Source: an uncultured bacterium (GTDB lineage Bacteria; Poribacteria; WGA-4E; PCPOR2b). From it: a DNA stretch of 64,000 nt. The notes beneath the pieces were generated by a model. It was not told the DNA's origin. It did not search any database and saw only the letters and a program-made list of their open reading frames with translations. The stretch's first letter is position 1. Every line of letters begins with the position of its first letter. Below are positions 7,870 to 34,107 of the stretch, piece after piece. The translations under genes and the position numbers were made by a program. The stretch covers positions 163,486 through 227,485 of the forward strand of contig CAZOAL010000003.1 of NCBI GenBank assembly GCA_964577695.1, in the 5' to 3' direction.

Positions 7870-8200
7870 GCAAATGTGCAAATGGAAGGAGAGGAAGAAA
7901 AGGAAGGATGGAAGGAAGGAAGGATGGAAGAAGGGAAGGATGGAGGGATGGAAGAATGGAAGATTGGAAGGATGGAAGATTGGAAGGATGGAAGGATGGA
8001 AGGATGGGAAGGATGGAAGATTGGAAGGATGGAGGGATGGAAGGATGGAAGATTGGAAGGATGGAAGAATGGAAGGATGGAAGGATGGGAAGGATGGAAG
8101 ATTGGAAGGATGGAGGGATGGAAGGATGGAAGGATGGAAAGGAAGAAGTTTTTCACGTTTCGCGTTTCACGTTTCACGTTTCACGTTTTACGCCATAAGC
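7866..8200. repeat. about 290-bp degenerate GGAAGGAT/GGATGGAA tandem tract followed by (GTTTCAC/GTTTCGC)x5
   Basis: read directly; the four overlapping track ORFs here encode WKDGRMEG / HPSILPSF low-complexity repeats and are repeat artefacts. Confidence 0.9.
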
Positions 8201-15554: not shown

Positions 15555-15628
15555 GAAAGCAGAGCGGGCAAAACCATCAGACGAACAGCTTGAACTGCTC
15601 TGATAGATTGGATAGAAAGGAAAAAAAG

Positions 15629-15904
15629 ATGAAAACCATTGCCATTGAACAGGCAAAATTAAAGATAAAAGAATCACTTGCATCAAACGACACCCTAATC
15701 GACCAGCGCGAATTAGCGAAAATGCTAGGCATCAATATAAAAGCCGTGGCGCGCGCGTATCACGAGCTGGTCGAGGAAGGCATTGTTCACGAAGAAACCT
15801 ACTTTCTTTGGAAAAACCCGGTCATGCGTCAGCGTCTTTTTGAAGCGATGCAAAGCCAAGAATATATTCCATTTGAGGTGGTTCGTGAAAGACTTGGTAT
15901 TTAA
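15629..15904 (+). CDS. Phd/YefM-position antitoxin
   Basis: MKTIAIEQAKLKIKE N-terminus; immediately upstream of and overlapping the YoeB gene; RBS aaagg at 15615. Confidence 0.6.
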   Translation: MKTIAIEQAKLKIKESLASNDTLIDQRELAKMLGINIKAVARAYHELVEEGIVHEETYFLWKNPVMRQRLFEAMQSQEYIPFEVVRERLGI

Positions 15905-16145
15905 GCCACAAGCGCTTCAAGATTTAGAATGGTGGATTAAGCAAAATCGAAAAGTGGCATTACGAATTTTGTCTCTGTTGCGAGAAATTCAGCAAACCCC
16001 CTTTCATGGCAGAGGTAAGCCTGAGCTTCTGAGGCACCAATATGCCGGTTGCTGGTCCAGACGTATCGATCAAGTCAATCGTATTGTTTATCAGGTTGAA
16101 ACGGATAAAATTATTGTTCATGCCTGCAAAGGTCACTACCAATGA
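15885..16145 (+). CDS. yoeB: YoeB/Txe-family type II toxin (ribosome-dependent mRNA interferase)
   Basis: ...REIQQTPFHGRGKPELLRHQYAGCWSRRIDQVNRIVYQVETDKIIVHACKGHY matches YoeB along its length; GTG start at 15885, 20-nt overlap with the antitoxin. Confidence 0.8.
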   Translation: MKDLVFKPQALQDLEWWIKQNRKVALRILSLLREIQQTPFHGRGKPELLRHQYAGCWSRRIDQVNRIVYQVETDKIIVHACKGHYQ

Positions 16146-16320
16146 AAACCGCCGCCATTTATGCCCGCGACTCACCTGGGCGTGACCGAGACCAGACCTC
16201 CACCATCGATGAAGCGCACATCGACATAGACCGTGCCATCTAGCAGATTTCACCAGAAATAGACAGTCATCGGAGATTTACAATACGGAACAGGAGTCAC
16301 ACGCAGAAGGGAGACAACAG

Positions 16321-16941
16321 ATGCGAGATTTGATCATTCTGGGACTCGGGGCGCACGGCCCGGAGATGGCGGAAATGGTGGAGGCGGTCAACCGCGTAAA
16401 AGAGACATGGCACCTGCGTGGCTTCATCTCCCCGGATGGACATCAGGTTGGGGAGTCTGTCAACGGTTACCCCGTCCTTGGCACGATGGAGGTGTTAAAG
16501 GATTACCCAGATGCTGATGTGGTGCCTCACAACGAGGGGACCGAGCGCCTGAACGTCCCCCGCCATCGGCTAGTGTCACTCATCCATCCCAGCGCCGTTG
16601 TGTCCCGCACGGCGCACATTGGCGTTGGCTGTGTCATTTATCCGCACTGTTACGTCGGTCTCAATGCACGGATAAATGATTTCGTCTTTTGCCTGAGTGG
16701 GTGTATCATCAATCACGATGATGTCATCGAAGAGCGGGTAATCTTCGCGAGTGGGGTCACGCTGGCGGGCGTCGTGCATGTGGAGTCCGACTGCTACCTG
16801 GGTCAGGGGTGTCAGGTCAGGCAACACTTGAGAATCGGTCGGAACAGCCTGATTGGTATGGGCGCGGTGGTGGTCACGGATGTTCCACCGAACAGCGTCA
16901 TGGTCGGCAATCCGGCTCGGAAACTGAGAGAGCGGGGATGA
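16321..16941 (+). CDS. PglD/NeuD-family sugar O-acyltransferase (left-handed beta-helix, hexapeptide repeats)
   Basis: Rossmann-like N-terminus MRDLIILGLGAHG followed by hexapeptide repeats (IGVGCVIYPHCYVGLNARIND...). Confidence 0.7.
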   Translation: MRDLIILGLGAHGPEMAEMVEAVNRVKETWHLRGFISPDGHQVGESVNGYPVLGTMEVLKDYPDADVVPHNEGTERLNVPRHRLVSLIHPSAVVSRTAHIGVGCVIYPHCYVGLNARINDFVFCLSGCIINHDDVIEERVIFASGVTLAGVVHVESDCYLGQGCQVRQHLRIGRNSLIGMGAVVVTDVPPNSVMVGNPARKLRERG

Positions 16942-17254
16942 GCGGACGCCGCGACTGGCTCGGCGTGGATTGACACATCCACGCCACGACTGCCGCTGGA
17001 TTTGTCAATCCAGCGAGAGCAGGAAAAATGTTAGCTACTGAAGTCATCGGACATAATTATTTGAGGCTTGGTCATAATTACCGGCAGATCCCGTTTGGCT
17101 ATGACTTTGCCGTGGGAGCAACCTCCCGGTCGCGAGGCGATGAATCGAGTCCGGCAGGACTCTCCCACAGAATTATGACCAACCCTCAATTATTTTGATA
17201 TTCGCCCCCATTCTGGATGCTTGAGACACTGCTTCCCCGACAAATTAAAAATTG

Positions 17255-17300
17255 AAGATTGAAGATTGAAACATCCGCAATCGACAATTGACAATCGACA
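17255..17300. repeat. tandem heptamers (GATTGAA)x3 then CAATCGACA/ATTGACA units
   Basis: aattgaagattgaagattgaaacatccgcaatcgacaattgacaatcgacaaagg. Confidence 0.8.
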
Positions 17301-17313
17301 AAGGAGATTTTAC

Positions 17314-18084
17314 TTGTCTGAACAACCGATTATCGAGGTCCATCGTCTGACCAAACATTTTGGCGACGTGACGGCGGTCAATGCCCTTTCCTTCACGGTG
17401 GATAAGGGGGAGATTCTAGGGCTACTTGGCCCCAACGGTGCCGGGAAGACCACGACGATTCAGATGCTTCTCGGCTTGACGACGCCCACGTCAGGGGACA
17501 TCCGTATTTTTGGACTCAATGTGCGGAAGCATCGTCTTGCGATTCTACAACGTGTCAACTTTTCCTCCGCTTATGTCTCCCTGCCCAGCAACCTGACAGG
17601 GCGGGAAAACCTGACCGTCTTTGCGCGACTTTACGGCATCCGTAAACCACAGCAGAAAATCGATGCGTTGTTAAATCTATTCGAGATTCCGCAAGCCCGC
17701 GACCGCGTGTCGGGTGCGCTCTCGTCGGGGCAGTTGACCCGCCTGAATCTCTGCAAAGCGTTCTTGAATGACCCGGAGGTGCTGTTCCTTGACGAGCCAA
17801 CCGCCAGCCTCGACCCGGACATCGCCGATAAGGTCCGCTCAACCTTGCGTCAGATTCAGCGGGAACGCGGCGTGACCATACTCTATACCTCCCACAACAT
17901 GCGGGAAATCGAACTGATGTGTGACCGGGTGATTTTTCTCTCGCGTGGAAATATCGTCGCCGAGGGCACCCCCAAAGAAATTCTCGAACGCGCCCGGACA
18001 CAGTCGTTAGAAGAGGTGTTTATCTCAATTGCACGAGATGGGGAACTGAAAGACCTATCAGCAAGAAAAGTGGAGGACAACTGA
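17314..18084 (+). CDS. ABC transporter ATP-binding protein
   Basis: Walker A GPNGAGKTT, signature LSSGQ, Walker B LFLDEP; TTG start 7 nt after RBS aaggag. Confidence 0.85.
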   Translation: MSEQPIIEVHRLTKHFGDVTAVNALSFTVDKGEILGLLGPNGAGKTTTIQMLLGLTTPTSGDIRIFGLNVRKHRLAILQRVNFSSAYVSLPSNLTGRENLTVFARLYGIRKPQQKIDALLNLFEIPQARDRVSGALSSGQLTRLNLCKAFLNDPEVLFLDEPTASLDPDIADKVRSTLRQIQRERGVTILYTSHNMREIELMCDRVIFLSRGNIVAEGTPKEILERARTQSLEEVFISIARDGELKDLSARKVEDN

Positions 18085-18863
18085 TGTGGATGCGAGTGAG
18101 CGGCTTAATTTTGCGCCATCTTTATCTCTATCGGCGGAGTTTGGCACGAGCGGGTGAAATCTTCTTCTGGCCCGTCATGGATCTCCTCGTCTGGGGGTTC
18201 GTCACCGCCTATATGGAACGGCTGAACGTCACGGCCCTTTTCTTGCTCGGTTCGCTGATTTTCTGGGACATTCTCTACCGCTCCCAACAGGCGATTACCT
18301 TTTCTATCACAGAGGAGATCTGGGTCAAAAACATCCTCAACATCTTCATCGCTCCTGTCAGCATTTATGAACTGATGCTTTCGACCTGCCTGCTCGGCGT
18401 GATTAAGGCACTCATTACCGCCGTTGTGTTGGGAGGGCTTGCCTATCTCCTCTACGCCTTCAACCTGTTGGCTGTCGGTATGGCAATCCTCCCCTTTATG
18501 GTCAGCCTTCTTCTGTTTGGCTGGGCGGTCGGGATGGTCACAACAGCGCTCATCCTCCGTTTGGGGCAGGCAGCAGAAGCCCTGGTCTGGGGAGTCCCCT
18601 TCCTGATACAACCCTTCTCGGCGGTCTTTTACCCGGTGGATGTGCTTCCGAAAGTGTTACAGGTGATCGCACACGGTTTGCCCTCAACGTACATCTTTGA
18701 AGGGATGCGAACAGCCCTGCGAACGGGTAGTGTGGATGTTTCCATGCTTATGACAGCGTTTGCCCTCAACGTCGTATACCTGGCTGCCGGTGCAACATTT
18801 TTTGGATGGATGTTCCAGCAGGTGCGGAAAAAAGGCTATCTGAGCCGACTGGGAATGGAATGA
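18084..18863 (+). CDS. ABC-2 type transporter permease
   Basis: six TM segments; ATGA overlap with the ATPase gene. Confidence 0.8.
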   Translation: MWMRVSGLILRHLYLYRRSLARAGEIFFWPVMDLLVWGFVTAYMERLNVTALFLLGSLIFWDILYRSQQAITFSITEEIWVKNILNIFIAPVSIYELMLSTCLLGVIKALITAVVLGGLAYLLYAFNLLAVGMAILPFMVSLLLFGWAVGMVTTALILRLGQAAEALVWGVPFLIQPFSAVFYPVDVLPKVLQVIAHGLPSTYIFEGMRTALRTGSVDVSMLMTAFALNVVYLAAGATFFGWMFQQVRKKGYLSRLGME

Positions 18864-19138
18864 TGAGCGGAAAGGGGAATGTTTTAGAAACCTCTTTACA
18901 CGCTTTGGGGTTGGAAGATTGGAAGAATGGAAGGATGGGTGGCAGGGCTTCATCTTCCATTCGTGCAGGTTTCCTGCTCTCATATCAAGTGCAAACTCAT
19001 TTTTTCAGGAATTTGAAACATGCCACTATTAGTCAACCAAATTTAATCTGAGGGATAGACTTCCGAAGTTTCCGAAACTTCGGAAGTCTGCGAGTCCATC
19101 AATTTAAATTTGGTGAAGCACTCTAAGGAGAAAAAATA

Positions 19139-20392
19139 ATGAAGGTCAATCCACAACAATTTCTTGATGATGGCTATCTCATTTTACGAGAGGTTATTTC
19201 TCCACAACGGTTAGACGAACTGCGCGCCAGTTTTGAAGTCCTTGTTGAACGGCAGAAAGCAATTTGGGTACGTGAGCGCAAGCCCAACGACCCGCCGGGC
19301 GGCGCATGGGAAACTTCAGCCCAGCCACGGTTGGGGGCTTTCAATACTCTTATTGATGAGACAACTGCCAACACAGTTGAATGTTGGTTACACGAAAATA
19401 CGTTGGGTGTCAGTCGCCAACTGTTGAGCGTGCCGGATGCGGCGTCGGTCGCGGGGATGATGTTGATGTGCAGCCCCACGCGCGATCACGGCCCCGCCAA
19501 TTGGCACCGCGATGTCCATCCCATTGACATGGCACCACTCGGTGGCTTGCAGATGGACCTGCTGGAGAAAGGGCCCAAGTATGTACAGTGGAACATCCCA
19601 CTCTATGACGATGATGTGCTGTGGGTGGTGCCCGGCAGCCATCGCCGCCTCAATACCGACGTAGAAAACCGACAACTGCTTGAAAATCCGCGCACCCCCT
19701 TGCCGGGGAGCATCCCGGTTCACCTCAAAGCTGGCGATGGTGTGGTGTATATCAACTACCTCCTGCACTGGGGCAGCAACTACAGCACCAAACTGCGACG
19801 CACCCTTCACGGCGGTCACTCAATTTTCCCTTACTTCCCTGACCTGAGCTTCACGAGGTTCCTTTCGCCTTCGGCGCGGGAGACCTTTGCGTGCTGGGCT
19901 CAGAAAAGCGCAAAGATGCAAGACCTTACAGAGGCAGCGCTCCGCGCTGTTATCAACAAAGATGTCAACACTTACCATGCAGCGGTCGAATCGCTCCAGC
20001 CCGGCGCGGGCGAGAAGGGCAAACTGGCACTGGCAATCTATCTCTCCAAGGCGGCCTATCACATCCACATCTTGAAACGCCCCGACTTTGACAGCCCCGC
20101 AAGTCGAAGACTCTCGGAACGGAGCGGGATTCAAAGCAACTTGCCCGCGGATGTTCGCAGACGCGCGACCAACTCGCACTCAATCACGCTCAACTGGGGG
20201 CCAGCGTTCGCCGTTCGCTTCTCGCAGGCAGAGGCTGACATTTTATGGCAGCGTTTCAAGACGCTTGACGCGAAACTTCAGGCGGAGACGGAGCAGTTTG
20301 TTCCCGGCTTCCAGTCCGGGCCGATGCGATACTTCTTCGAGGAGATGCCAGACGATTTCGATGTCGAAGACTTTATCGCCAGTTGGGATTAA
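19139..20392 (+). CDS. phytanoyl-CoA dioxygenase (PhyH) family protein with C-terminal extension
   Basis: N-terminus MKVNPQQFLDDGYLILREVI...; HRDVHP ... H motif spacing; RBS aaggag. Confidence 0.7.
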   Translation: MKVNPQQFLDDGYLILREVISPQRLDELRASFEVLVERQKAIWVRERKPNDPPGGAWETSAQPRLGAFNTLIDETTANTVECWLHENTLGVSRQLLSVPDAASVAGMMLMCSPTRDHGPANWHRDVHPIDMAPLGGLQMDLLEKGPKYVQWNIPLYDDDVLWVVPGSHRRLNTDVENRQLLENPRTPLPGSIPVHLKAGDGVVYINYLLHWGSNYSTKLRRTLHGGHSIFPYFPDLSFTRFLSPSARETFACWAQKSAKMQDLTEAALRAVINKDVNTYHAAVESLQPGAGEKGKLALAIYLSKAAYHIHILKRPDFDSPASRRLSERSGIQSNLPADVRRRATNSHSITLNWGPAFAVRFSQAEADILWQRFKTLDAKLQAETEQFVPGFQSGPMRYFFEEMPDDFDVEDFIASWD

Positions 20393-20395
20393 GTG

Positions 20396-20500
20396 AGGGC
20401 TAGTCATCATTCCCAGGGGAGGCAGTCGTAGCCTAAGATTCTATCTTGGCCCCTTGCGCAAGGGGCCAAGATAGAATCTTGGGCTACAATTCAACCGCCG
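20396..20500. repeat. gene-end motif gtgagggctagtcatcattcccaggggaggcagtcgtagcc plus family-B core palindrome (gtagcctaagattctatcttggcc..ggccaagatagaatcttgggctac)
   Basis: same motif follows the stops at 42976 and, in diverged form, 11043. Confidence 0.8.
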
Positions 20501-20682
20501 GATAATTATGACCAAGCCTCGATTAAGTGTGGGGCTGGTCCATTTCTGGAAAAATGAGTTGACACGCAGCATCAGCCGGAAGGAAAGGAAGGAAGAAAGG
20601 GGGGAAACCCTTCCCTTCCTTCCTTTCCGTTCACTCTGCTCTTCTTACCCAATTGTCAACATCTTTCTGAAACACCTGTCCA

Positions 20683-21995: not shown

Positions 21996-22104
21996 TTAAC
22001 AGAAAAATCTCGTGGAGATTCATTATCTCATACTTTCATCAACGGGTCAATACGGAAAAAAGCTGATATGCGTGTTTTTAATTGATTTCGGACTTTCCAG
22101 GTTT

Positions 22105-22160
22105 TGAATCCGTCCAGTTTGCGTGTTGCGTATCGCGTATTTCGTACTTCTACGCAACAC
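22105..22160. repeat. inverted repeat tttgcgtgttgcgtatcgcgtatttcgta / tacgcaacacgcaatacgagag
   Basis: read directly. Confidence 0.7.
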
Positions 22161-22327: not shown

Positions 22328-23254
22328 ATGGCAACGTTGCAAAAGGACGGTTCAGTGTTGCAAATTGAAACGGATAGCTATCACGCCGCCATGCAGACAC
22401 AAGGCTATGTCAGCGGCACGATGGCAGGCAGTTTCATGGACAAACGCACCGGTGCTCGCGATTTGGGGTTCGGCTTGTGTATCATCGATTTTTTACTGGA
22501 GCCGGGAGCTGACGATGAAACGACACCGCCAGCGTTGCGCTACCACTGGGGAGACGCGGTACATGGCCAGATTCCCAAGCGTTATGTGGAACTTCCGCAG
22601 ATTTGCACGCAGGCGAAGCAGCTCCCCTTTGAAGTTGTGGAAGGCGAAGGCTTTGTCGCCGTGCGGCAGTGGTTCAGATGGGATACCGCTCGTCCGCCTT
22701 ACAAAGCAGGCTCGCGTTGGGAGCAATGGCTCGTTTTCCCCGACGGCGTCCGTTGGTTCTTCGCTTACGACAAAGTGACCAGTGCCAACACAGTCGATAA
22801 CCTCGTGTTGCGGATGGATATGCCAGGGCACCTCAAGCACCAACGCGGTGACACATTTGAGGGGGTTTACTTGAGTTATCACGGGGACATCCCATCGGGT
22901 GCGTTTGCTGATGATTTTCCACCCGATGGGCGTTACTTTTATCGGCGCGGTGGCGATGGCAGTGTGCCGCAACGGTTCATCCGCGCTTATCAGTTGCGCA
23001 ACGGCGTTTGGCTGGCAGGGATGGCGTTAGAACCATCGGCCGTTTATGAGGCATGGTGCCACCAGCGCGGCTATGTTTGCTTCATTCAGGAAATCGGTGG
23101 GCGACGTGTACACGCAGGTGAAAGTTTTGGTGCTGTTCACCTCATTGGCTTCTTCGATGACCTTGCTGAGATGGAGCGCGTGTTTGACGCTCACAAAGGC
23201 GCAACGGCTTTGCGAGTGGAGGGTGGTCGGTGGCGGTTGGAAAGTGAAACGTAA
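22328..23254 (+). CDS. hypothetical protein
   Basis: 308-aa ORF, RBS ggaggaag; no recognisable motif. Confidence 0.5.
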   Translation: MATLQKDGSVLQIETDSYHAAMQTQGYVSGTMAGSFMDKRTGARDLGFGLCIIDFLLEPGADDETTPPALRYHWGDAVHGQIPKRYVELPQICTQAKQLPFEVVEGEGFVAVRQWFRWDTARPPYKAGSRWEQWLVFPDGVRWFFAYDKVTSANTVDNLVLRMDMPGHLKHQRGDTFEGVYLSYHGDIPSGAFADDFPPDGRYFYRRGGDGSVPQRFIRAYQLRNGVWLAGMALEPSAVYEAWCHQRGYVCFIQEIGGRRVHAGESFGAVHLIGFFDDLAEMERVFDAHKGATALRVEGGRWRLESET

Positions 23255-23403: not shown

Positions 23404-23874
23404 TCAATGCTTCCGCTTCTTCTGTTGTAATTCCTCTGCTCGTTTTGCTACGATTTGCGCCAGTGTGGTAAAAACTCGGAAATCACCTTTGAGGATGTCG
23501 ATCACATGCTGTCTAAGGACTGTGGCGTATTGCGAGAGAATTCTCTCTAGCTTTCGGGGAGCGAATGCTTCTTGGAATTTCTGTTCAACTCTTGATGATG
23601 GCGATCTGAGCTCAATCAGGTCGTCTAAGTAAAAGCCATTCATTGCATCCGCATATTCCGGGCGTCGGTTATTGACAAGCTGAGAGAGAAAAACAAACAC
23701 CCGATACTCCCTTGGCTCAAAGCGGATGGTGATGGATGTCGTTTGGTTTCGGTACTCAATTTCCGTTCCGAAAGGGTCCCGTTCAGTCGCCACGACCTTG
23801 AAACCAAACTCATCTATCAGAAATTGGAATACATCGTCACACAGTTTTTCAAACCTCTTATTCATATCATTCAT
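23404..23874 (-). CDS. hypothetical protein (156 aa), ATGA-coupled to the upstream 51-aa ORF (immunity/antitoxin-like position)
   Basis: ORF; lower-GC region. Confidence 0.5.
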   Translation of the reverse strand: MNDMNKRFEKLCDDVFQFLIDEFGFKVVATERDPFGTEIEYRNQTTSITIRFEPREYRVFVFLSQLVNNRRPEYADAMNGFYLDDLIELRSPSSRVEQKFQEAFAPRKLERILSQYATVLRQHVIDILKGDFRVFTTLAQIVAKRAEELQQKKRKH

Positions 23875-24026
23875 GGGTGTACCACAGGGTAACCGACCTT
23901 TTCGATCTCCCTGCGCTCCATTTCATAGTAAGGACTGCGGAAAGGTCTTTTGGAATCGGGACCAAGATCTATAATCACCCTTCCCTTTTTCATCTGTTCA
24001 CGTATCCATTTTTTGTTGTTATTCAT
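23871..24026 (-). CDS. small ORF (51 aa) MNNNKKWIREQMKKGRVIIDLGPDSKRPFRSPYYEMERREIEKVGYPVVHP, below the 60-aa ORF-track cutoff
   Basis: translated by hand from the complement; its stop TGA overlaps the ATG of 23404..23874 (cccATGAatg). Confidence 0.4.
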   Translation of the reverse strand: MNNNKKWIREQMKKGRVIIDLGPDSKRPFRSPYYEMERREIEKVGYPVVHP

Positions 24027-24317
24027 CCAATTTTCTGGAATCTCTGATCTGGGTCTATAGTACCTCGCTCCAATCTGTTTCGCTTATGGAATGACACGGG
24101 CTTTCATGTTCTCACCAATCACTACCTTACCGATTCCCCTGTTGGCAGTCTGTTTTCGTTGACCTGAACTTCTTCGCTGAATCAAATTTCCTGGATGGGC
24201 CAATCTATCCAACACCTCCCAAAACCGCACCTGCCCCATACGCGGCATCCACATTCCTAAGTCTTTTCTACCTCTATCTTGTTAAATTCAGAAAACCGGC
24301 GCCAGGCGTGAGGGAAA

Positions 24318-24593
24318 CTACCGATGGAGAAGCACCGAGACCACCCAGTTCCACCCCGCGGAACTGTAGAACGTATACATCTCTAGTGAGAATTCGTCTC
24401 CGAATTTTTCCGCAAAACGCGAGAGCAGGTCTTCCCGCCAACGTCGGCAGTGATTTCGTGTGATCTCAGGTGTTGCCGCCTGTACCATGCGGGAAGCACC
24501 TTTCCCAGCCCATAAACTCAATATGGTATTCCTCTTCAGATACCACACCTGAGGCGCATTGCCATAGGCAAACTGAACACGGCGAATATCCAT
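24318..24593 (-). CDS. hypothetical small protein (91 aa), possibly a gene remnant
   Basis: ORF 18 nt downstream of 24612..25607; followed by about 290 nt of non-coding or decayed sequence. Confidence 0.3.
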   Translation of the reverse strand: MDIRRVQFAYGNAPQVWYLKRNTILSLWAGKGASRMVQAATPEITRNHCRRWREDLLSRFAEKFGDEFSLEMYTFYSSAGWNWVVSVLLHR

Positions 24594-24611
24594 CGGGTAA
24601 GTTCAGCGCAA

Positions 24612-25607
24612 TTAAGGTTCATTTATGATAGTCCAAGCTCGTTGTTTAGCGTACGTATATGCTTCTTGGATGCCAATGAACACAAGTTCTCCTGTATGAG
24701 CTTCAAGCTCAGGATTGATCCCTAGGGTGCATGACCCATCTGGCATGATCCAACCATCATTTGGTATATTAATCCAGTAAACTCCTTCCCAAGACACACT
24801 CTTATCCGGTATTCCAATCCGATAACCAAATGCCTTAGTGAAGTCTGGGTTCGCATCAATAACAACATGCGTAATTGGTTGCTGTCTGCGGCTCAACAAC
24901 TTGTTATATGCTTGTCGATACTCCACAAACTTATCGCGCGATGCCGTATCCCAAGCCTTTCTGACGAGTTCGTCTAAGGCAGCAATTGCTGCCGGGGTGG
25001 TCATTCTTGAAATACATCGTGCCCCTTCTGTCCCCATGTCATCCTTCTTGGTCAGCAAGATGTACGTTACCAGGGCAGTTGCGGCTTCTGAGGTGTTTTC
25101 AATAGCAACCACGTTTATGCCTCGGAGAGCAACCCCATGCTCAAGGTTGCTGTGAAAACCACTCGCAGCACCAATGTGAACTAAACAATTGTAAGCTTTT
25201 CTGGCGCGACTGCTCGCAAACCACCCGGATCTAAGAGCACGGTAGAAATTTTCAATTAGAGAGCTTGGTACTTTTCTTTTCCATTTATCCACTTTCCATT
25301 CATGAGTTAATGGATCGTATCCTGAAGAAACGCTTATGTTCCAAAGACGTAGACGTGCAACTTCACGGTGTGCTGCTTCAAAGGTATCGCACCTGGTATA
25401 CTCTTTCAAGCTACGTGGATCTGCCATAAAGTCTTCTACAAGCACAACATGGGCCCTCCTACTATCCTGGACAATAGCACAGGGTTCCCAAGGAATATCA
25501 CCGTCCAACGGCTCATCAAACCAAATCGATATAACGTAGCCCCATTTTCCGCTGGCAAGTTCTCTTTGGTAGTTTGACAACCATTGGCTTTTAATTTGGC
25601 TAATCAT
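24612..25607 (-). CDS. hypothetical protein (331 aa) of unknown function
   Basis: strong RBS aaggagg before ATG; lower-GC region; no recognisable family. Confidence 0.6.
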   Translation of the reverse strand: MISQIKSQWLSNYQRELASGKWGYVISIWFDEPLDGDIPWEPCAIVQDSRRAHVVLVEDFMADPRSLKEYTRCDTFEAAHREVARLRLWNISVSSGYDPLTHEWKVDKWKRKVPSSLIENFYRALRSGWFASSRARKAYNCLVHIGAASGFHSNLEHGVALRGINVVAIENTSEAATALVTYILLTKKDDMGTEGARCISRMTTPAAIAALDELVRKAWDTASRDKFVEYRQAYNKLLSRRQQPITHVVIDANPDFTKAFGYRIGIPDKSVSWEGVYWINIPNDGWIMPDGSCTLGINPELEAHTGELVFIGIQEAYTYAKQRAWTIINEP

Positions 25608-26035
25608 CGAGTTGCCTCCTTACTTGGCGCAAACTTATAGATGTCAGACCGAGAACGCAGATTAAAGTGAAATGGACCACAGTTCGTGTCCACTTCCCAA
25701 TGCGCGACCTCGAGGTGTCCTTCAAGCAAATGTATCTTCGTAATCTGCGGCGATTTGTTAAATTGACCGGAAAACTTAACATTCTTTGGATTGGGTTCAA
25801 TTCATGGAGTGTCGCACCGCCAATTCTGTCACCTCGCAAAAACGTCTGGTCGAGCCATAAGATTCGACGAAATCTCCAGATGTTGGGATTAAGGAAAACC
25901 AGAGGCAGAAGCCTCCACTCCCACGAACACGGAAGGGCTTTCACGTCACATCTGGCGTTTTCAGCCATGAAAACCCAGCGATTTCGCCAAAACCCTCCCG
26001 TTTTCCTTTGGGCGATTGCCCGCTCTTCCAGAGGG

Positions 26036-26407
26036 TTAGGGTGGTGGAGGGAGAAGATTTTGCACGAAATCCTTTATCGGCTGATAGGCGAGGTTGATGA
26101 GATCTTCGACTTCTGGTGGTGTGAATCGGTACAGCTCATATCTTGCTTGACGGCTTGCCCAGTACAGATCTAAATACTCACTTGCGATAGGCAATCCAAA
26201 TCGCATCACAGCATCATTGCAAGCCCGATGAGAAGTGAAGTGCTGATGATGGCGGTTATCAAAGTATGCTTCAATCCAATGTAATGCTGCGTAAAAAGCG
26301 GCCGTGACAATCCACTCTCGATTCACCGACACCGTTCTGTCTAGCGATTGAAAGAAGGTTTCGTTACGTTGCGCCTGTGTTTCATGTTGCACTTGGCTCG
26401 GCATCAC
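26036..26407 (-). CDS. hypothetical protein (123 aa), helical, HEPN-like candidate
   Basis: ATGA overlap with the upstream gene; AAFYAALHWIEAYF...SHRACNDAV...RQARYE helical pattern. Confidence 0.45.
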   Translation of the reverse strand: MMPSQVQHETQAQRNETFFQSLDRTVSVNREWIVTAAFYAALHWIEAYFDNRHHQHFTSHRACNDAVMRFGLPIASEYLDLYWASRQARYELYRFTPPEVEDLINLAYQPIKDFVQNLLPPPP

Positions 26408-26757
26408 TTCTCCTTTTCATAAAGGACAATCGCCTCTTCGGGAAGGTGTTCTCTTTTGCTGGTAATCATAAAATCAAATAAAAGTCCCGGGTCAGACTTT
26501 CGTACCACTTTGATAAAGCGCTCAATGATTGCCTTACCCAAATCTCGGTTGTCCCGAGCTGTAACTGTCCAGAGGTCAACATAGCCAGCATACGGAATAG
26601 CCCCGATGGTAACAACACCATCGAGTTGACTGACCTTCTGGGCAAATGCCTGACACACTTCTTCGTACTCACCGAGTTCTTTTCGGACCCAGAGTTTTTC
26701 TTTAGCCCATTTTAGCATTTCTTCTTCCGTTTGAACCGTTGCTGGAACGCTCATCGT
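26404..26757 (-). CDS. hypothetical protein (117 aa, MSVPATVQ...), upstream partner of 26036..26407
   Basis: RBS aaggaggg 7 nt before ATG 26757, so the track ORF is trimmed; GVVTIGAIPYAGYVDLW is a weak minimal-nucleotidyltransferase-like motif. Confidence 0.45.
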   Translation of the reverse strand, partial: TMSVPATVQTEEEMLKWAKEKLWVRKELGEYEEVCQAFAQKVSQLDGVVTIGAIPYAGYVDLWTVTARDNRDLGKAIIERFIKVVRKSDPGLLFDFMITSKREHLPEEAIVLYEKEK

Positions 26758-26981
26758 AAATCCCTCCTTCTGAAGTTGATAGGACCACAGCATTATAGCA
26801 CAAGGCACTTTGAGGCGCAAGCGAATCTTTTGATATACAAAAACTGGTGTCCACCTACTTATCTCATGATTCAACCGGCTCTGCCGCTTTTGAATCCGTG
26901 CCCTGGTCGGTCAGGACCGTCAATTTGCCGTGGCCAGCCTTCCAGCCAAAAGTCAGCCATGGCGTTGAGTTCATTCACGTT

Positions 26982-27912: not shown

Positions 27913-28770
27913 CTACCCGGTGTTTATACTTCCTTCGATTTGACGCAAATAATCCGCAATCTGCCGATACGCCGAGTTCAGCCGCTGCATCATTTCAAGG
28001 CTCCCGCCTTTATCCGGGTGATAATTCAATGCCAGTTGACGGTAGCGAGTTTTCAATTCATCAAAGTCAGCCTGATGAGTAAAGCCCAAAAGTTGGAAGT
28101 TGTTTCGCAAGGCTTCAGGCACGTTAAGTGGCTGATGCTCTGTTTCTTGCCGTTCCACTCGCTCGATCTCTTGCAGACGGAGGGCTTCCAGATGCCTCTC
28201 CAGTGTCATTGAGGACATCAATCGAATTCTATCCACCTCAAAAAACAGTTCCCCGACGCACTTCGCATGAATTTCATCCGGCGTCCCATCCGTCTTCTGA
28301 GCCATCACCCGCTCAAATGCCGCGATTCGCTCCCGTTTATTTTGAGATACAGTCCGTTCATAATATGCCCGAACCAGCTCCTGGTACAGTTGCCATTTGG
28401 GGTGTTGCAAACCGATCGTCGCCCAATTCCGCAACCGACAGCCGATGAACGCATCAAGTGCCTCGCGTGCGACATAAGCGGAAATCTCCTCCTGGATGAC
28501 CTCCATATCCTCTCGATTGAAATCTTGAAAAATCGAGAAATCTAGTTTATGTCGATAGAAATCCTTCAGCCGCTCCAGGTCACACGCTGCAACAAAAGGT
28601 TGGGGCGGTTTGATAAACCCACGCTCCCAGGTGCGAAGTTGTTTCTGGAATCGTTGGACCTCCTTGAAAGAAATACGGGCTGCGACATCATGCGCGTGTT
28701 GCTCAAAAACGTGCCGCAATCGCTCCGAAATAAACGCCAGTTCATCAACGAATAAATAAGTTTTAGACAT
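27913..28770 (-). CDS. J-domain (DnaJ-like) protein, J domain at the C-terminus
   Basis: ELKTRYRQLALNYHPDKGG with HPD tripeptide. Confidence 0.7.
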   Translation of the reverse strand: MSKTYLFVDELAFISERLRHVFEQHAHDVAARISFKEVQRFQKQLRTWERGFIKPPQPFVAACDLERLKDFYRHKLDFSIFQDFNREDMEVIQEEISAYVAREALDAFIGCRLRNWATIGLQHPKWQLYQELVRAYYERTVSQNKRERIAAFERVMAQKTDGTPDEIHAKCVGELFFEVDRIRLMSSMTLERHLEALRLQEIERVERQETEHQPLNVPEALRNNFQLLGFTHQADFDELKTRYRQLALNYHPDKGGSLEMMQRLNSAYRQIADYLRQIEGSINTG

Positions 28771-28796
28771 ATGACTTTTTCACCGTTCGTTCAAAC

Positions 28797-28866
28797 CCCG
28801 GTTGTCCTTTGGACACCGGGTGTTTGAAATTGACACACCCGGTGTCTAAAGACAACCGGGGTGTAA
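28797..28866. promoter_or_regulatory. operator-like 25-bp inverted repeat (cggttgtcctttggacaccgggtgt N11 acacccggtgtctaaagacaaccg) upstream of the J-protein gene
   Basis: read directly; 27-95 nt upstream of the minus-strand start at 28770. Confidence 0.5.
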
Positions 28867-29223: not shown

Positions 29224-30801
29224 ATGGATGAGAAAAAGTTATGGACGGCGAAGGCAGCGGGAATGAAAAGAACGCTTTCAGAGATTCCCGAGCCGTCTGC
29301 GTATAGTCCTGTGACAGATGCCCTTCAAAGGGTGACGCAATTAGGCGAACCAGAAATTGCCGCGATTCTCAAGAATTTTAGCTCAATGCCACAGTCAACG
29401 CTGGTTTTCGCGAACCCGGTTTTACATCATGCAATGGTCCACTGTGATAATACAGATATAACCTTGGATATCCGGAGTTTTGCCATTCGCGGCCTCATCC
29501 GAGAAAGTGAAATTGTCGCGGGCGACTTTAGCCCGGCGTATCTCACTTTTGTTGGTTTATTTGGTCGAAAACCAGAGGTCACTCCGGCAGGGGTCGATGA
29601 AGAAGCGATGCTTGACGCCTCCATCAATCGGAAGTTTTACAGGTCGATGGGAATCATCAGAGAAAGCCTCATGGGGCATGAGCCAATGATACAGCAGGTT
29701 GCTGAATTTGTCAAAAAGTTTCCAGATTCGGGACCTGAAATGACCATCCAGTATTTCTCAACGCTCCGAAAAGCGCATCTGGTGAAAAATCGAATACCGG
29801 AGCGGGGATTGAACGATGAGCGGCACCCCGGCGCACTGCTTGTAGAGATGATTAGAACTCATATCGAAAATGTGGCGTTCGGAACGATGTCTGTTTATAT
29901 GCGTCATCTGTTACGAGACAATCCGACCTTAACGGCTGAAGCGCTCGTTCACCAGACAGACGATTTCATCTCTCAAGAAGAGGAGGCAGGAAACATGGCG
30001 TTTCGAGCGTGCTATAGCCTGCTACTCGGTCATCATGTCAATACGGTTGAAAGTAAAATTTTAGAGCGAATGGGGATGATACAACTGCATCATGGTTCCG
30101 CTGGAGCCAACATGGTTGCGCGGTATCTGGCAACTTTACACACCGGGTCGGTTTCAGATTTTTTAAGTGCCTCTCAGATGACTTTAGATGGCAACCGACA
30201 TTTTGGGGCGATTCATGACATGACCCACTTTATGAATGAACTTGAGCCACTAACTCCGGAAAAGCGCGATAAAGCCATTCAGGATAAAGTGCTCAGTGGG
30301 GGATTGCCGACGTTTGGTCACCCGGAAATCGCTGCTGCTGGACGGGCGGACGAAATCCAACAAGACCCACGCCCCGCGATTTACCTCGCCCCGCTCTTTC
30401 GAGCGATAGATAAAGGTCAGATTACGCTAACCGATAAACAGAGAGAACGACTCGCTATCGTTCAGCGCATCTATCAAATCGCTTTTGTTGAGGGAGTCGT
30501 TAAACCGGGAAGGGAACACGAACCCCCACTCCGTCTGACGCCGAATACAGACTTCGGAGGCTGGTCTGTCCAGGAAGCCCTGGGCGTTTATGAAACTGAC
30601 AGGACCCTCCTCACTTATATCTTTAGAGGGTTTGGATGGATGCTGGATGTCCGAGAGCAACTCCAACAAAAAATTATTCGCCCTGTCATTCCACCTGACC
30701 CACGTATTATTCCGACGCCTGGCGCTGACCGAGTGATACCTCAAGTGGTGGTTACTGTTCATAATCGACTTGTTGAGGGGGATGCCTTTACGGTGCATTG
30801 A
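29224..30801 (+). CDS. divergent citrate synthase-like (citrate synthase/citryl-CoA lyase superfamily) protein
   Basis: HHGSAGANMVARYLATLHTGSVSDFLSASQMTLDGNRHFGAIHDMTHF parallels the citrate synthase HADHEGGNVSAHT...LSDPYLSF...GPLHG block; FGHPEIAAAGRADEIQQDPR parallels GYGH..K.DPR; adjacent to icd and mdh. Confidence 0.5.
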   Translation: MDEKKLWTAKAAGMKRTLSEIPEPSAYSPVTDALQRVTQLGEPEIAAILKNFSSMPQSTLVFANPVLHHAMVHCDNTDITLDIRSFAIRGLIRESEIVAGDFSPAYLTFVGLFGRKPEVTPAGVDEEAMLDASINRKFYRSMGIIRESLMGHEPMIQQVAEFVKKFPDSGPEMTIQYFSTLRKAHLVKNRIPERGLNDERHPGALLVEMIRTHIENVAFGTMSVYMRHLLRDNPTLTAEALVHQTDDFISQEEEAGNMAFRACYSLLLGHHVNTVESKILERMGMIQLHHGSAGANMVARYLATLHTGSVSDFLSASQMTLDGNRHFGAIHDMTHFMNELEPLTPEKRDKAIQDKVLSGGLPTFGHPEIAAAGRADEIQQDPRPAIYLAPLFRAIDKGQITLTDKQRERLAIVQRIYQIAFVEGVVKPGREHEPPLRLTPNTDFGGWSVQEALGVYETDRTLLTYIFRGFGWMLDVREQLQQKIIRPVIPPDPRIIPTPGADRVIPQVVVTVHNRLVEGDAFTVH

Positions 30802-30805
30802 ACCG

Positions 30806-30900
30806 CATGAAACGTATTGCGTATTGCGTATTGCGTACTGCGTATTGCGTGAGTCGTGATACCTGAACCTAACACCTAACACCTAACACCTGACACCTAA
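30806..30900. repeat. (GCGTATT)x5 followed by (CACCTAA)x5 heptamer tracts
   Basis: cgtattgcgtattgcgtattgcgtactgcgtattgcg ... cctaacacctaacacctaacacctgacacctaac. Confidence 0.9.
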
Positions 30901-30916
30901 CGAACGAGGAATAAAA

Positions 30917-32167
30917 ATGATCGAATTTGATAAACTCATAGTGCCCGGAGTCGGCGAAAGAATTGGTAGAGAAAACGGTCGATTGGTTTTTCCCAATCGT
31001 CCGATTATTCCTGTGATTGAGGGCGATGGCATTGGCAGAGACATCATGCGTGCCACTCGCCGGGTGATCGATGCCGCCGTTGAAACCGCCTACGGTGGAG
31101 CCAAACGAATCGCGTGGTTTGATATTTATGCCGGCGAGAAAGCCAACGAAATGTATGGGGAATGGTTGCCCCAGGACACCTTCAAAGCCATTCAGTATTT
31201 TCGGGTTGCCCTGAAGGGGCCCTTGACAACGCCTGTCGGCGGCGGATTTCGTAGCTTAAATGTGACCCTCCGTCAAGAACTAGACCTGTATGCGTGCGTT
31301 CGCCCGGTGCGCCATTTTCAAGGGGTGCCTTCCCCCGTGACGCACCCGGAAAAAATGGATGTCGTCATTTTCCGGGAAAATACCGAAGACGTTTATGCAG
31401 GAATCGAATGGGCGCAGGGAACGCCGGAAGCGAAGAAAGTGATTGAATTTCTCCGCACGCAGATGGGAGCGGACATCCGTGAAGACTCAGGGATCGGTAT
31501 TAAGCCGATCAGCATTTTCGGGACGAAGCGCCTGGTGCGAATGGCGCTCCAATACGCCATCGATCATCACCGCCGGAGTGTCACGCTCGTTCACAAGGGC
31601 AACATTATGAAATTCACGGAAGGTGCTTTCCGTGATTGGGGCTATGAAGTTGCGAAGGAAGAATTCGGGGGTCAGACGGTCACAGAAGATGCGGTTTATA
31701 GCCAATACAATGGGAGAATCCCTGAAGGAAAGATTGTTATTAAAGATCGGATCGCGGATAGCATGTTACAGCAGATCTTGACACGAACGGACGACTACGA
31801 CGTCATTGCAACACCTAACCTGAACGGTGACTACCTCTCCGATGCCTGCGCCGCGCAGGTGGGTGGAATCGGGATGGCACCGGGTGGCAACATCGGTGAT
31901 GAACAGGCGCTGTTTGAAGCCACCCATGGGACTGCGCCCAAGTACACCGATCAAGACGTGTCCAATCCCAGTTCACTCATCCTTTCGGCGGTGATGATGC
32001 TCGAACACATCGGTTGGCAGGGTGCCGCAGATCTCGTGACTCAGGGGCTTGGGCAGGCAATTCTACAAAAGCGTGTGACTTATGACCTCGAACGTTTGAT
32101 GGAAGGCGCGACGAAACTTCACACCTCGGAGTTTGGAACCGCAATTATTGAGAATTTTAAATCATAA
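30917..32167 (+). CDS. icd: NADP-dependent isocitrate dehydrogenase
   Basis: collinear with E. coli Icd from the N-terminus ([15 protein letters not shown]...). Confidence 0.85.
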
Positions 32168-32226
32168 TGCGTAATACGTAATGCGTAAAAATCCTACTTA
32201 TTACGCATTACGTATTACGTATTACG
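32166..32226. terminator. heptamer-built hairpin (aatgcgtaatacgtaatgcgtaa / ttacgcattacgtattacgtattacgcatt) after icd
   Basis: perfect inverted heptamer arrays directly after the stop. Confidence 0.55.
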
Positions 32227-32242
32227 CATTCAGGAGAAACAA

Positions 32243-33169
32243 ATGGCTAGGAAAAAAATCAGCGTCATCGGCGCTGGAAACGTTGGCGCGACTGCCGCAT
32301 TTCTTATCGCTCAAAAGCAAGTTGGCGATGTCGTGATGGTGGATATTATCGATGGGATTCCACAGGGGAAGAGTTTGGACATGGCACAAGCATCCCCTAT
32401 TGAGCTCTTTGACGCAAGCGTTACAGGCTCGCTGGATTATGAAGCGACTGCTGGCTCTGACCTCGTCATCATTACGTCTGGCTCTCCCCGCAAGCCGGGC
32501 ATGACCCGCGAAGACCTCTTGCAGACCAATGCGAAAATCGTTGGCATCGTCACGGAAAGCGTGGTGAAGCACTCGCCGAATTGTATCATCGTGATGTTGA
32601 CAAACCCGCTGGACATCATGACCTATCATGCGTGGAAGGTGTCGGGTTTCCCACCCAATCGCGTCCTTGGACAAGCTGGCGTCCTGGATTCAGCGCGGTT
32701 CCGTTATTTTATCGCTCTGGAACTTGGCGTCTCTGTCGAAGACGTTCAGGCACTTGTGATGGGGGGACACGGGGATACGATGGTGCCCCTGCCGCGTTAT
32801 ACAACGGTTGCCGGGGTTCCAATCACACAACTCATGTCCCCTGAGCGAATCACAGCGCTTGCCGAGCGGACACGCGACGGCGGCGCTGAAATCGTCAACC
32901 TGCTGAAAACCAGCGGTTACTACGCCGCCGGTGCCGCGCTCGCTCAAATGGCAGAAGCTATCATCCGAGACAAGAAGCGGATTATCCCTTGCTCGGCTTA
33001 CCTCACCGGACAGTACGGCATCAATGACCTGTACAGCGGCGTCCCGATTAAATTGGGGGCGGGCGGCGTTGAGCAGGTTATCGAAATCGAACTGACAGAC
33101 GATGAACTTCAGGCGTTGCAAACGTCGGCTCAGACGTATCGGGAAGGGATTCAACTGCTGGGGTATTGA
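32243..33169 (+). CDS. mdh: malate dehydrogenase (LDH-like MDH family)
   Basis: KISVIGAGNVGATAAFL Rossmann N-terminus; 308 aa; family conservation throughout. Confidence 0.85.
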   Translation: MARKKISVIGAGNVGATAAFLIAQKQVGDVVMVDIIDGIPQGKSLDMAQASPIELFDASVTGSLDYEATAGSDLVIITSGSPRKPGMTREDLLQTNAKIVGIVTESVVKHSPNCIIVMLTNPLDIMTYHAWKVSGFPPNRVLGQAGVLDSARFRYFIALELGVSVEDVQALVMGGHGDTMVPLPRYTTVAGVPITQLMSPERITALAERTRDGGAEIVNLLKTSGYYAAGAALAQMAEAIIRDKKRIIPCSAYLTGQYGINDLYSGVPIKLGAGGVEQVIEIELTDDELQALQTSAQTYREGIQLLGY

Positions 33170-33333
33170 TGCCGATTATAGTAAACGATCATGGGAATTA
33201 GTTCGTCTATTCAGAAGTTAGGCGCAATGCCAGTTATAGTGGAGGAGTTCTTTCTCTATCCTTACTAGCGAAGGTCAAGTGAGCAATATGATTTGGAACC
33301 GACAGACTAATCGGGAAGGTGAGTCGAGAATTC

Positions 33334-34107
33334 ATGGCAGAGCGAAAAAAGAAAGGGCGTCAGATCGTTGTTCACCTTTTGGCGTTTCTGGTACTCTTGT
33401 GTTTGTGGCAGTCGTTCGCATTGGCGTTCTTTCGGGGTTCAGAAATTTTCCCTGCCCCGTATGCTGTACTGAGAGCGTTGTTTGTGGAGATTCCTCCAAA
33501 AAGCCTTGTCAGTGATTGTGTGGCAAGCCTGAGTCGCGTGGGCGTTGGGTTGCTGGCAGCGATGATTCTGGGCATTGGGTTGGGCGTGCTCTTAGGGATG
33601 TTGCCGCGTGTGGGTCTGTATTTGACGACGCTTATCGAGTTCTTTCGTCCCATTCCGCCCATTGCTTGGATTCCGCTTGCTATCCTGTGGTTCGGCATTG
33701 GGGAGGTGTCGTCTTATTTCATCATATTCATGGCGGCGTTCTTTCCCATTTTCACGAACTCGTTTGCAGGAGCGCGTTCCCTCAGTCCCATCCACACAAC
33801 CGTCGCACGCAGTTTGAAGGTTCGCTGGACACTGTTCCTTCAGCACGTCCTGTTGCCGTCTGCGCTGCCGCAGATTGTGACAGGCGTGCGCGTCGGGTTA
33901 GGCATCGCTTGGATGGCAGTCATCGCATCTGAGATGGTGGCGGCTCAATCAGGCTTGGGTTACATGATTCAACTTAATCGCCTGCTGCTGTTAAGTGACC
34001 GTGTGGTCGCGGGGATGGTCATTATTGGTCTGGTTGGTTATGTAATGAACCAACTGGCACTACTGATTGGCGAGGTGCTAACGCCATGGACACGGCTCAA
34101 CAACTAA
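33334..34107 (+). CDS. ABC transporter permease, NitT/TauT (SsuC-like) family
   Basis: six TM segments; EAA-like loop; GTG 33319 is an alternative start. Confidence 0.75.
   Translation: MAERKKKGRQIVVHLLAFLVLLCLWQSFALAFFRGSEIFPAPYAVLRALFVEIPPKSLVSDCVASLSRVGVGLLAAMILGIGLGVLLGMLPRVGLYLTTLIEFFRPIPPIAWIPLAILWFGIGEVSSYFIIFMAAFFPIFTNSFAGARSLSPIHTTVARSLKVRWTLFLQHVLLPSALPQIVTGVRVGLGIAWMAVIASEMVAAQSGLGYMIQLNRLLLLSDRVVAGMVIIGLVGYVMNQLALLIGEVLTPWTRLNN

Follow-up and report, generated by a model that had tools for sequence, protein, structure and literature searches.

The region described here is a 3471-bp island (positions 23404-26874, or up to 26933 when the leader of its outermost gene pair is included) in a 64-kb stretch of DNA from a Poribacteria metagenome-assembled genome (MAG). 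The whole 64-kb stretch is referred to as the window. The open reading frames (ORFs) of the island lie on the minus strand, between a TIM-barrel gene and the convergent gene of a 308-aa protein (p308). The island was found to consist of three units, which are a putative toxin-immunity cassette with a broken toxin gene (cassette A), a coupled pair of small genes (cassette B) and a slot occupied by the gene of a 331-aa protein (cassette C). The features are collected in Table 1, in which the loci and contigs used for comparison are given by L numbers, as in the text; compared proteins are given by P numbers.

A preliminary description of this DNA, made from the letters alone, had called the segment AT-richer than its surroundings, and this was borne out. 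The GC content of the island was 0.466 versus 0.519 for the whole window, which was the minimum among all 3471-bp windows of the 64 kb and about 2.4 standard deviations (SD) under the mean. The shift was gene-wide, since the GC content at third codon positions (GC3) was 0.41-0.48 in the five credible island genes versus 0.59-0.72 in the flanking enolase, p308 and TIM-barrel genes. The tetranucleotide distance of the island was also raised (about +1.5 SD), but it was not the extreme of the window, and other short low-GC stretches exist elsewhere. The island is accessory and compositionally foreign.

Every minus-strand ORF of the earlier list is present in the sequence, with some corrections to their reading. 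The coupled genes encode 116 and 122 aa rather than 117 and 123 aa, the 51-aa ORF is the 3' fragment of a pseudogene, and the 91-aa ORF is doubtful as a gene. Two gaps had been described as non-coding or decayed. The gap of 428 bp (25608-26035) is real, whereas the "290-bp" gap (24027-24317) is accounted for by the split frame of the pseudogene, whose 5' half makes up most of it. The strong ribosome-binding sites were visible for two genes, as Shine-Dalgarno sequences upstream of the 331-aa gene (AAGGAGG) and the 116-aa gene (AGGAGG).

The statement that the island proteins belong to no recognisable family also held, because the island ORFs gave zero matches in the Pfam, NCBIfam, PHROGs and PADLOC scans. 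For PADLOC-DB 2.0 (5027 models), no match was obtained at E <= 1 for seven island ORFs. When the toxin, 331-aa and HEPN-fold proteins were compared by tblastn with plasmid and phage collections, no match was found.

Table 1. Features of the island (positions of the window)
Feature	Position	Strand	Remarks
156-aa immunity protein, intact	23404..23874	-	start overlaps toxin stop (ATGA); homologues follow full-length RHS toxins
Toxin-tip pseudogene (orphan polymorphic-toxin C-terminal domain)	23871..24254	-	premature TAA 24084-24086; intact in L006
91-aa ORF, doubtful gene	24318..24593	-	singleton cluster; no Shine-Dalgarno visible
331-aa protein	24612..25607	-	variable middle slot; unique 110-aa N-terminal extension and 221-aa core
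Conserved 3' element of the pair module	25819..26035	-	two or three terminator-like hairpins, including 25991-25974 and 25924-25900
122-aa HEPN-fold protein, putative toxic component	26036..26404	-	ATG start; AlphaFold2 (AF2) model and Foldseek
116-aa partner, putative antidote	26404..26754	-	ATG start; directly upstream of HEPN-fold gene in every complete locus fetched
Pair-module leader	26755..26933	-	promoter-like TTGCGC 26820-26815, 17-nt spacer, extended -10 TGcTATAAT 26800-26792, Shine-Dalgarno AGGAGG 26768-26763

Cassette A contains the remains of a toxin gene. The 51-aa ORF (23871-24026) and a 56-aa ORF (24084-24254) were found to be the halves of one frame of about 125 aa, which is split by a TAA codon. 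An intact version of 122-125 aa (protein P0007) is encoded by a contig from Hainich groundwater (L006), which has a Tyr where the window has the stop (VIPYAKQIG in L006, VIP*AKQIG in the window). The identical TAA was present in three further assemblies of the window strain (L001, L003 and L004), indicating that it is not an assembly error. Because the stop is located within the conserved domain, past a G-E-x-M..R-V-x-P motif, the 51-aa product cannot be a functional domain.

Family scans of the repaired toxin were empty, and a word-indexed homologue search returned no candidates. To collect relatives of the tip, P0007 was compared exhaustively by HMMER with 1.84 billion representatives (E <= 1e-3), which gave 477 relatives. 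The match of about 85 residues lies at the C-terminal end of relatives whose sizes range from 74 to 1972 aa, and it ends a median of 5 aa from the terminus. In 127 of the 150 best relatives, the tip was within 15 aa of the C-terminus. The N-terminal regions of the long relatives contain RHS_repeat, TcdB_toxin_midN/SpvB, Fil_haemagg_2 and PT-TG. The conserved residues of the tip are G12, E13, M15, R18, V19, A23, G27, D61, G63, S72, Y75 and E78 (numbering of alignment A7). Among them, the acidic residues E13, D61 and E78 may point to a metal-dependent hydrolase. In the classification of polymorphic toxin systems that Zhang, Aravind and colleagues are said to have set out in 2012, such extreme C-terminal placement reportedly defines a toxin tip. 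In other bacteria, the tip would be delivered on the C-terminal end of RHS, Tc-like and CdiA-like proteins.

The 156-aa gene was assigned from the loci of such full-length toxins. An immunity homologue was directly downstream of the toxin gene in both of the full-length toxin loci inspected. In L020, a 177-aa gene overlapping the stop of the RHS toxin gene encodes a protein 31% identical to the 156-aa protein (E 5e-25), and in L109, the product of a 158-aa gene directly after a full-length RHS toxin is 46% identical (E 1e-44). Since homologues adjoin both RHS toxins, the 156-aa protein is, by the usual genomic criterion, the predicted cognate immunity protein of the tip. It presumably binds and neutralises the tip. 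Its dN/dS (ratio of nonsynonymous to synonymous substitution rates) was 0.25 versus L005, a contig of another Poribacteria MAG, and 0.17 versus L006, and the gene appears to be under purifying selection.

The toxin has been inactivated in three ways, namely by the nonsense codon (window strain, four assemblies), by truncation to 40 aa (L005) and by a deletion of about 375 bp (contigs of P0003 and P0004, read from the fused translations). The immunity gene was intact in every variant seen, with the toxin broken, truncated or deleted. In the window copy, only about 40 residues precede the tip domain and there is no delivery domain. No RHS or haemagglutinin protein was found among the larger ORFs scanned with Pfam at 12453-20392 and 29224-34107, plus one at 41-43 kb. 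The stop codon and the missing delivery domain led us to file cassette A as orphan and decayed. The preliminary description had suggested a toxin-immunity module. The 51-aa and 156-aa ORFs do form one; however, with its toxin gene reduced to a pseudogene, it is no active weapon but a decayed orphan. In our interpretation, cassette A (23404-24254) would represent an orphan tip lacking a delivery domain and killed by a nonsense codon, and the retained immunity gene may protect the cell from neighbours firing the intact toxin.

Orphan rhs and cdi cassettes occur in enterobacteria. Cassette A resembles such Rhs/CdiA tip-immunity modules in the position of the tip at the C-terminus of RHS, Tc, haemagglutinin-repeat and PT-TG proteins, in the immunity gene lying directly 3', overlapping the toxin stop and co-varying with the toxin, and in the absence of a delivery domain from the window copy. 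The decay of the toxin with retention of the immunity gene, and content that differs between close genomes, are further likenesses. It differs in being free-standing, with no full-length RHS/CdiA gene in the scanned ORFs about 10 kb to each side. Its tip and immunity families also have no entry in Pfam, NCBIfam or PDB, and its host is a Poribacteria MAG from groundwater-type samples.

Cassette B is a pair of genes that overlap by one base (TGATG). The promoter in its leader is a reading by eye, and a consensus scan did not call it (the -35 element matches at 3/6 positions). The leader is 90.5% identical over 179 nt to that of L005, and it is partly kept upstream of a solo partner gene in L015/L016. 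The conserved 3' element is 84% identical to L005 and 95% identical to L022, and the similarity ends at 25849 and 25819, respectively. With its own promoter-like leader and terminator-like tail, cassette B (25819-26933) would form a self-contained two-gene operon.

The 122-aa protein has 19 close homologue clusters with 59-100% identity. A metagenome scan added one distant homologue (31% identity), and a scan of genome contigs for the HEPN family found nothing. An upstream partner homologue of 105-116 aa (83 aa in L028), abutting or overlapping the HEPN-fold gene, was present in every complete locus fetched. The pair is kept as a unit in L005, L014, L015/16, L017-19, L021-L023 and L025-L028. 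Its neighbours vary between these loci, with NMT1 and a KAP-like nucleoside triphosphatase (NTPase) in L005, Peptidase S9 and cofH in L014, L015/16 and L023, and MlaD and RadA in L017-19, L025 and L027. The MAG of L005 contains a second, divergent copy of the pair (P0031). In L015/L016, a solo 116-aa partner gene (5067-5399), 74% identical to that of the window and with the conserved leader, lies without a HEPN gene just upstream of a complete pair. In L014 (6420-8164), a paralogous pair is located upstream of cofH, as in several genomes; AAA_15/AAA_21 ATPase and 147-aa genes are inserted between the pair and cofH, and they may be a defence system.

The AF2 model of the 122-aa protein has five helices (pLDDT 90.3, pTM 0.85). 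When the model was compared with PDB by Foldseek, nearly all of the top 30 or so matches were HEPN proteins, with prob 0.9-1.0, TM 0.5-0.7 and E 0.013-0.8. These include AF_0298 (2hsb), which was the best match (E 0.013, prob 1.0), TT1696 (1ufb), 4nqf, the MntA-HepT toxins (7bxo, 6m6w and 5yep), the sacsin HEPN domain (3o10) and the AMPylated Aphanizomenon HEPN toxins (7ae6/8/9). On the basis of this model, the 122-aa protein can be confidently predicted to have the four-helix up-and-down HEPN fold.

About 15 polar residues (His, Arg, Asn and Glu) are invariant or nearly so even in the 31%-identity homologue, which suggests an active site. The invariant R88 ends the helix 74-88, and the near-invariant H55, H59, R62 and N63 lie in the insert 52-69. 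A near-invariant acidic residue, E45, is located in helix 2 (29-51), and the Ex3[KR] form is absent. The canonical Rx4-6H motif of HEPN proteins is located where helix 3 ends; in AF0298-like HEPN-T proteins and AbiV, the Arg of the motif is retained and the His is missing, and a His of the helix 2-3 insert apparently serves instead (PMC3710099). The motif layout of the 122-aa family, with an Arg and without the His, fits this AF0298/AbiV variant. Such an alternative site would combine the Arg that ends helix 3 with the His and the Arg-Asn of the helix 2-3 insert. The harmful member of the pair would be the HEPN protein, with RNA as its probable target.

The comparison with AF_0298 (2hsb) and AbiV extends to the best fold match, the kept R88, the missing canonical His and the conserved H55 and H59, which lie where the alternative catalytic His has been placed (PMC3710099). 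In contrast, the window family has no detectable sequence similarity to these proteins and a partner of another type, and it possesses its own N-terminal H7/Q10/R13-N14-E15 patch and R62-N63 dipeptide. The window allele has Cys at the near-invariant R62 (R62C). A sister strain (L003), which differs from the window by 8 single-nucleotide polymorphisms in 9 kb, has the same C62 and in addition S63 instead of N63. These substitutions suggest that the HEPN protein of the window may be attenuated.

The partner was considered as a degenerate minimal nucleotidyltransferase, and this candidate was dropped. In alignment A8, G51-A52 and D60-x-W62 stand in place of the nucleotidyltransferase G-S and D-x-D motifs, and the distant L028 homologue lacks both. 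No NTP_transf or other Pfam match was obtained for the 116-aa partner, per-member scans included. Lacking the G-S and D-x-D motifs, the 116-aa protein is unlikely to neutralise the HEPN protein by AMPylation, as a nucleotidyltransferase would, and may instead act as a stoichiometric antidote.

Damage was confined to the HEPN gene, and the partner was intact everywhere seen. In L022, the HEPN gene is cut after residue 93, and an insert of about 896 bp (733-1628) replaces the last 30 codons. The HEPN gene is absent beside the solo partner of L015/16, and R62 and N63 are mutated in the strains described above. This pattern lends indirect support to the assignment of the HEPN protein as the putative toxic component and of the partner as its antidote. 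The insert of L022 encodes an HExxH (HELVH) segment and an overlapping 85-aa ORF and leaves the conserved 195-bp tail; it looks like another toxin/immunity cassette at the same hotspot.

By analogy, the coupled pair appears to behave like a toxin-antitoxin (TA) module. Its closest counterpart in organisation is MntA-HepT (Shewanella SO_3165/SO_3166, structures 5yep, 6m6w and 7bxo; Aphanizomenon HEPN/MNT, 7ae6-7ae9), which likewise consists of two coupled small genes, the protective one first and a HEPN gene of about 120-130 aa second. MntA-HepT is also among the best fold matches, and both have a mobile, multi-copy distribution. Unlike MntA-HepT, the window HEPN protein lacks Rx4-6H and its partner lacks the G-S and D-x-D motifs, and no sequence similarity was detected to either family.

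Cassette C (24612-25607) would be a variable slot that is filled in the window by a member of a rare family. The core of the 331-aa protein consists of a helical-repeat region and a small alpha/beta C-terminal region. Seven homologues were found in 5.8e9 proteins, all limited to residues of about 111-331. The first 110 residues are unique to the strain, and one homologue has a Cys-rich N-terminus instead. The pLDDT of the AF2 model was 69.9, and the helix stack of the core (112-250) reached 80-95. Remote homology had been proposed as a check for this protein. A Foldseek search of the model against PDB and BFVD gave nothing significant (the best E was about 0.1, with mixed matches such as the Ctf4 C-terminal region and the HEAT-like alphaRep), and the family profile found nothing significant among PDB sequences.

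The homologues of the 331-aa protein are found among small hypothetical genes that follow one another on the same strand, with CHAT, TIR_2, VWA and transposase genes nearby. No conserved neighbour gene was found at these loci, and the adjoining ORFs shared no homology, either among themselves or with the 91-aa ORF. Since the neighbours are unrelated, the 331-aa and 91-aa ORFs are not a conserved pair, and the idea that they form a toxin/immunity pair was rejected. Our best guess for the 331-aa protein is a further conflict protein with a protective or accessory role.

The 91-aa ORF has no homologue outside the same strain, and its last 24 or so nucleotides belong to the toxin cassette shared with L006, so that it spans a recombination junction. 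For these two reasons it is regarded as a doubtful gene. Its GC3 (0.58) is unlike that of the other island genes. The middle slot of L005 (7191-8190) contains a 112-aa ORF ("SGEIHHAPAAS...", toxin-tip-like by eye only) and then an ORF of about 166 aa, and family scans of both were empty.

Comparison of loci pointed to mobility of the island. L005 is 92.9% identical to the window at 26933-25849 and 94.0% identical at 24020-23417, and the flanks and the middle are unrelated. In L005, the end modules thus occupy another locus and enclose another middle cassette. The pair module with its 195-bp tail is also present in L022, where a different gene follows. Most simply, this movement would have taken place by recombination where the cassettes border on each other (25819-25849 and about 24341-24375). 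A 12-nt direct repeat (22102-22113 and 26888-26899) was considered and set aside as being at chance level. The sister contigs are from groundwater-type metagenomes. A KAP/STAND-like P-loop NTPase follows the island in L005 (8819-10087).

The gene of p308 allowed the equivalent locus to be inspected in other species. Relatives of p308 occur in 126 species-representative genomes; 80 of these loci were fetched, and island genes were absent from all of them. Homologues in conserved syntenic core positions with housekeeping annotations were thus looked for and not found, and the island has no housekeeping role. The earlier proposal of acquired accessory genes agrees with this absence, with the low GC content and with the presence of the end modules at another locus in L005. 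p308 itself (308 aa, 22328-23254, plus strand) has no Pfam family and belongs to a widespread uncharacterised family, with 47-81% identity in the 126 genomes and hosts among Poribacteria, Armatimonadota, Planctomycetota, Verrucomicrobiota and Acidobacteriota.

These data bear on the simplest alternative, that the island contains ordinary, vertically inherited lineage-specific genes without conflict function whose low GC content is incidental. The other short low-GC stretches of the window and the lack of annotation for most of the proteins would agree with it. However, the island is absent at the equivalent locus in 80 species, its modules are at a different locus in L005, and the GC3 shift is gene-wide. 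The tip architecture and the immunity linkage are direct evidence, and for cassette A this alternative is already contradicted. We consider it highly improbable.

Taken together, our results suggest that the island is probably a composite accessory conflict island, made of an orphan toxin/immunity cassette, a TA-like HEPN pair and one rare protein. It may be pictured as three cassettes for conflict between bacteria or within the genome that have been stacked and shuffled by horizontal transfer. This kind of element is well known, and the component families are uncatalogued.

Several results weigh against this interpretation. Neither the tip family nor the immunity family matched anything in Pfam, NCBIfam or PDB, and for the tip this was so even with a 28-sequence profile and in per-member scans. 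The HEPN assignment comes from one AF2 model with Foldseek E-values of 0.01-0.8, and sequence profiles of the 122-aa family, per-member scans included, found nothing in PDB or Pfam. No conserved His was present 5-7 residues past any conserved Arg in alignments A4 and A6; the canonical Rx4-6H is therefore absent, and the 122-aa protein could be a non-catalytic HEPN domain. The profile of the partner gave only weak ferredoxin-like matches in PDB (E 0.18-1, with IlvN ACT at 0.18 and CopZ at 0.9), by which no fold was assigned. A HEPN-T family that lacks the motif and is fused to ferredoxin domains has been described (PMC3710099), and may offer a lead here. The dN/dS of the pair among the closest copies was 0.4-0.9, calculated from very few substitutions, so that the copy in the island may be a decaying one without function. 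The homologues, fold and neighbours of the 331-aa protein yield no functional clue. The composition, the gene structures, the pseudogene, the architecture of the toxin tip, the linkage of toxin and immunity genes, the HEPN fold, the mobility of the pair and the absence from syntenic loci are shown by the data; what the 331-aa protein does, and that the proteins are toxic, neutralise toxicity or cleave RNA, we infer. Finally, the window contains no tRNA, no Rfam family was found, no att-like direct or attC-like inverted repeats were found at the island and cassette borders, and no integrase or transposase was present among the Pfam-scanned genes about 10 kb to each side.

With the missing Rx4-6H in mind, the pair may not be a TA module at all. 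Its products could be the two subunits of a benign protein that binds a nucleotide or another ligand or has a regulatory task; the HEPN domain would then be non-catalytic, and the distribution would look mobile only because the genes are small. In many cases, HEPN domains that accompany nucleotidyltransferases bind substrate and are not catalytic (PMC3710099). The stable position of the pair upstream of cofH in several related genomes is consistent with such a role, as are the weak ACT- and ferredoxin-like matches of the partner, which are typical of ligand-binding domains. On the other hand, about 15 polar residues remain (near-)invariant down to 31% identity, and the HEPN gene alone is disrupted or mutated. 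The copy number argues in the same direction, with at least two divergent copies in the L005 MAG, probably two in the genome of the window, and the solo partner in L015/16. Moreover, the pair is located among toxin and immunity cassettes. A benign pair therefore seems rather unlikely.

The negative searches at the borders also concern the possibility that the island is a fragment of an integron-like cassette array or of another site-specific mobile element. Its small, same-strand, promoter-poor genes and the cassette content that switches at sharp breakpoints between genomes would be expected of such an array. Against this, the integrase or transposase and the tRNA are missing as described, no attC-like inverted or direct repeats were found at the cassette boundaries by a repeat search (no dedicated attC model was used), and no further copies of the boundary elements were found. 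An array of this kind is very unlikely.

Phage defence had also been raised for the island. In that case, the HEPN pair would be an abortive infection (Abi) system and the 331-aa protein a new effector, in a neighbourhood with a Type ISP enzyme 8 kb away. Abi and defence systems often contain HEPN proteins (PMC3710099), and a Type ISP restriction-modification (R-M) gene is indeed located at 12453-15554. The paralogous pair in L014 adjoins the AAA_15/AAA_21 ATPase gene, and TIR_2 and CHAT genes are found in the vicinity of homologues of the 331-aa core. However, none of the 5027 PADLOC models was matched, which leaves the phage-defence reading without direct support, and no phage-derived relatives were found in PHROGs or phage genomes. 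Housekeeping genes (ABC transporter, PhyH, enolase and p308) lie between the R-M gene and the island. In addition, a polymorphic-toxin cassette accounts for one third of the island, and such a system acts between bacteria and not against phages. We judge an anti-phage defence island to be unlikely, and somewhat more so than the benign pair.

Returning to the composite conflict island, a more far-reaching joint version of it can be proposed tentatively, with less than even expectation. The pair would found an undescribed HEPN-type TA family with an alternative active site and a small, possibly ferredoxin-like antidote that is not a nucleotidyltransferase. The 331-aa protein would be a new conflict protein competing with toxin/immunity cassettes for one slot, and the tip and its immunity protein would be a widespread (about 480 representatives) uncatalogued polymorphic-toxin family.

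The analysis turns six "hypothetical" genes into testable parts. It adds a tip/immunity family carried by RHS, Tc and CdiA-type proteins that searches of Pfam, NCBIfam and PDB missed, as well as a rare two-gene module in which a HEPN-fold protein is paired with something other than the usual nucleotidyltransferase. It suggests that cassettes for competition between bacteria occur in free-living, groundwater-type Poribacteria and are shuffled there. Literature searches gave no paper combining Poribacteria with polymorphic toxins. The island also provides a clear case of toxins decaying while antidotes are kept, by one nonsense codon, a truncation, a deletion and an insertion across related genomes and contigs. 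The understanding of such systems is unchanged, and the value lies in annotation and in candidates for experiments.

Other features of the window were also recorded. The Type ISP R-M enzyme (1033 aa, plus strand; Pfam Type_ISP_C at E 3e-101, ISP_coupler and N6_Mtase) is a second accessory or defence gene, and a low-GC stretch at about 15250-16000 follows it. Tandem arrays of the heptamer CGTGAAA are located at 816-842/957-983, 8152-8192, 26974-26986/27849-27875 and 50895-50914/50969-50981. A two-unit probe gave 18 matches versus 0.18 expected, and most of the arrays form inverted pairs. The whole TIM-barrel gene lies between the members of one such pair, which touches the left edge of the island, and arrays were also present in L021 and L023. 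They look like a lineage-specific dispersed repeat of the short tandemly repeated repetitive (STRR)/repetitive extragenic palindromic (REP) type. Long intergenic palindromes with arms of at most 69 nt lie at 20389-20526, 20582-20628 and 28795-28862, and gave spurious Rfam microRNA-precursor matches. Finally, the minus-strand gene at 27913-28770 encodes a 285-aa protein whose sole recognisable domain is a J domain at the C-terminus (225-273), a position that is unusual for DnaJ-like proteins.

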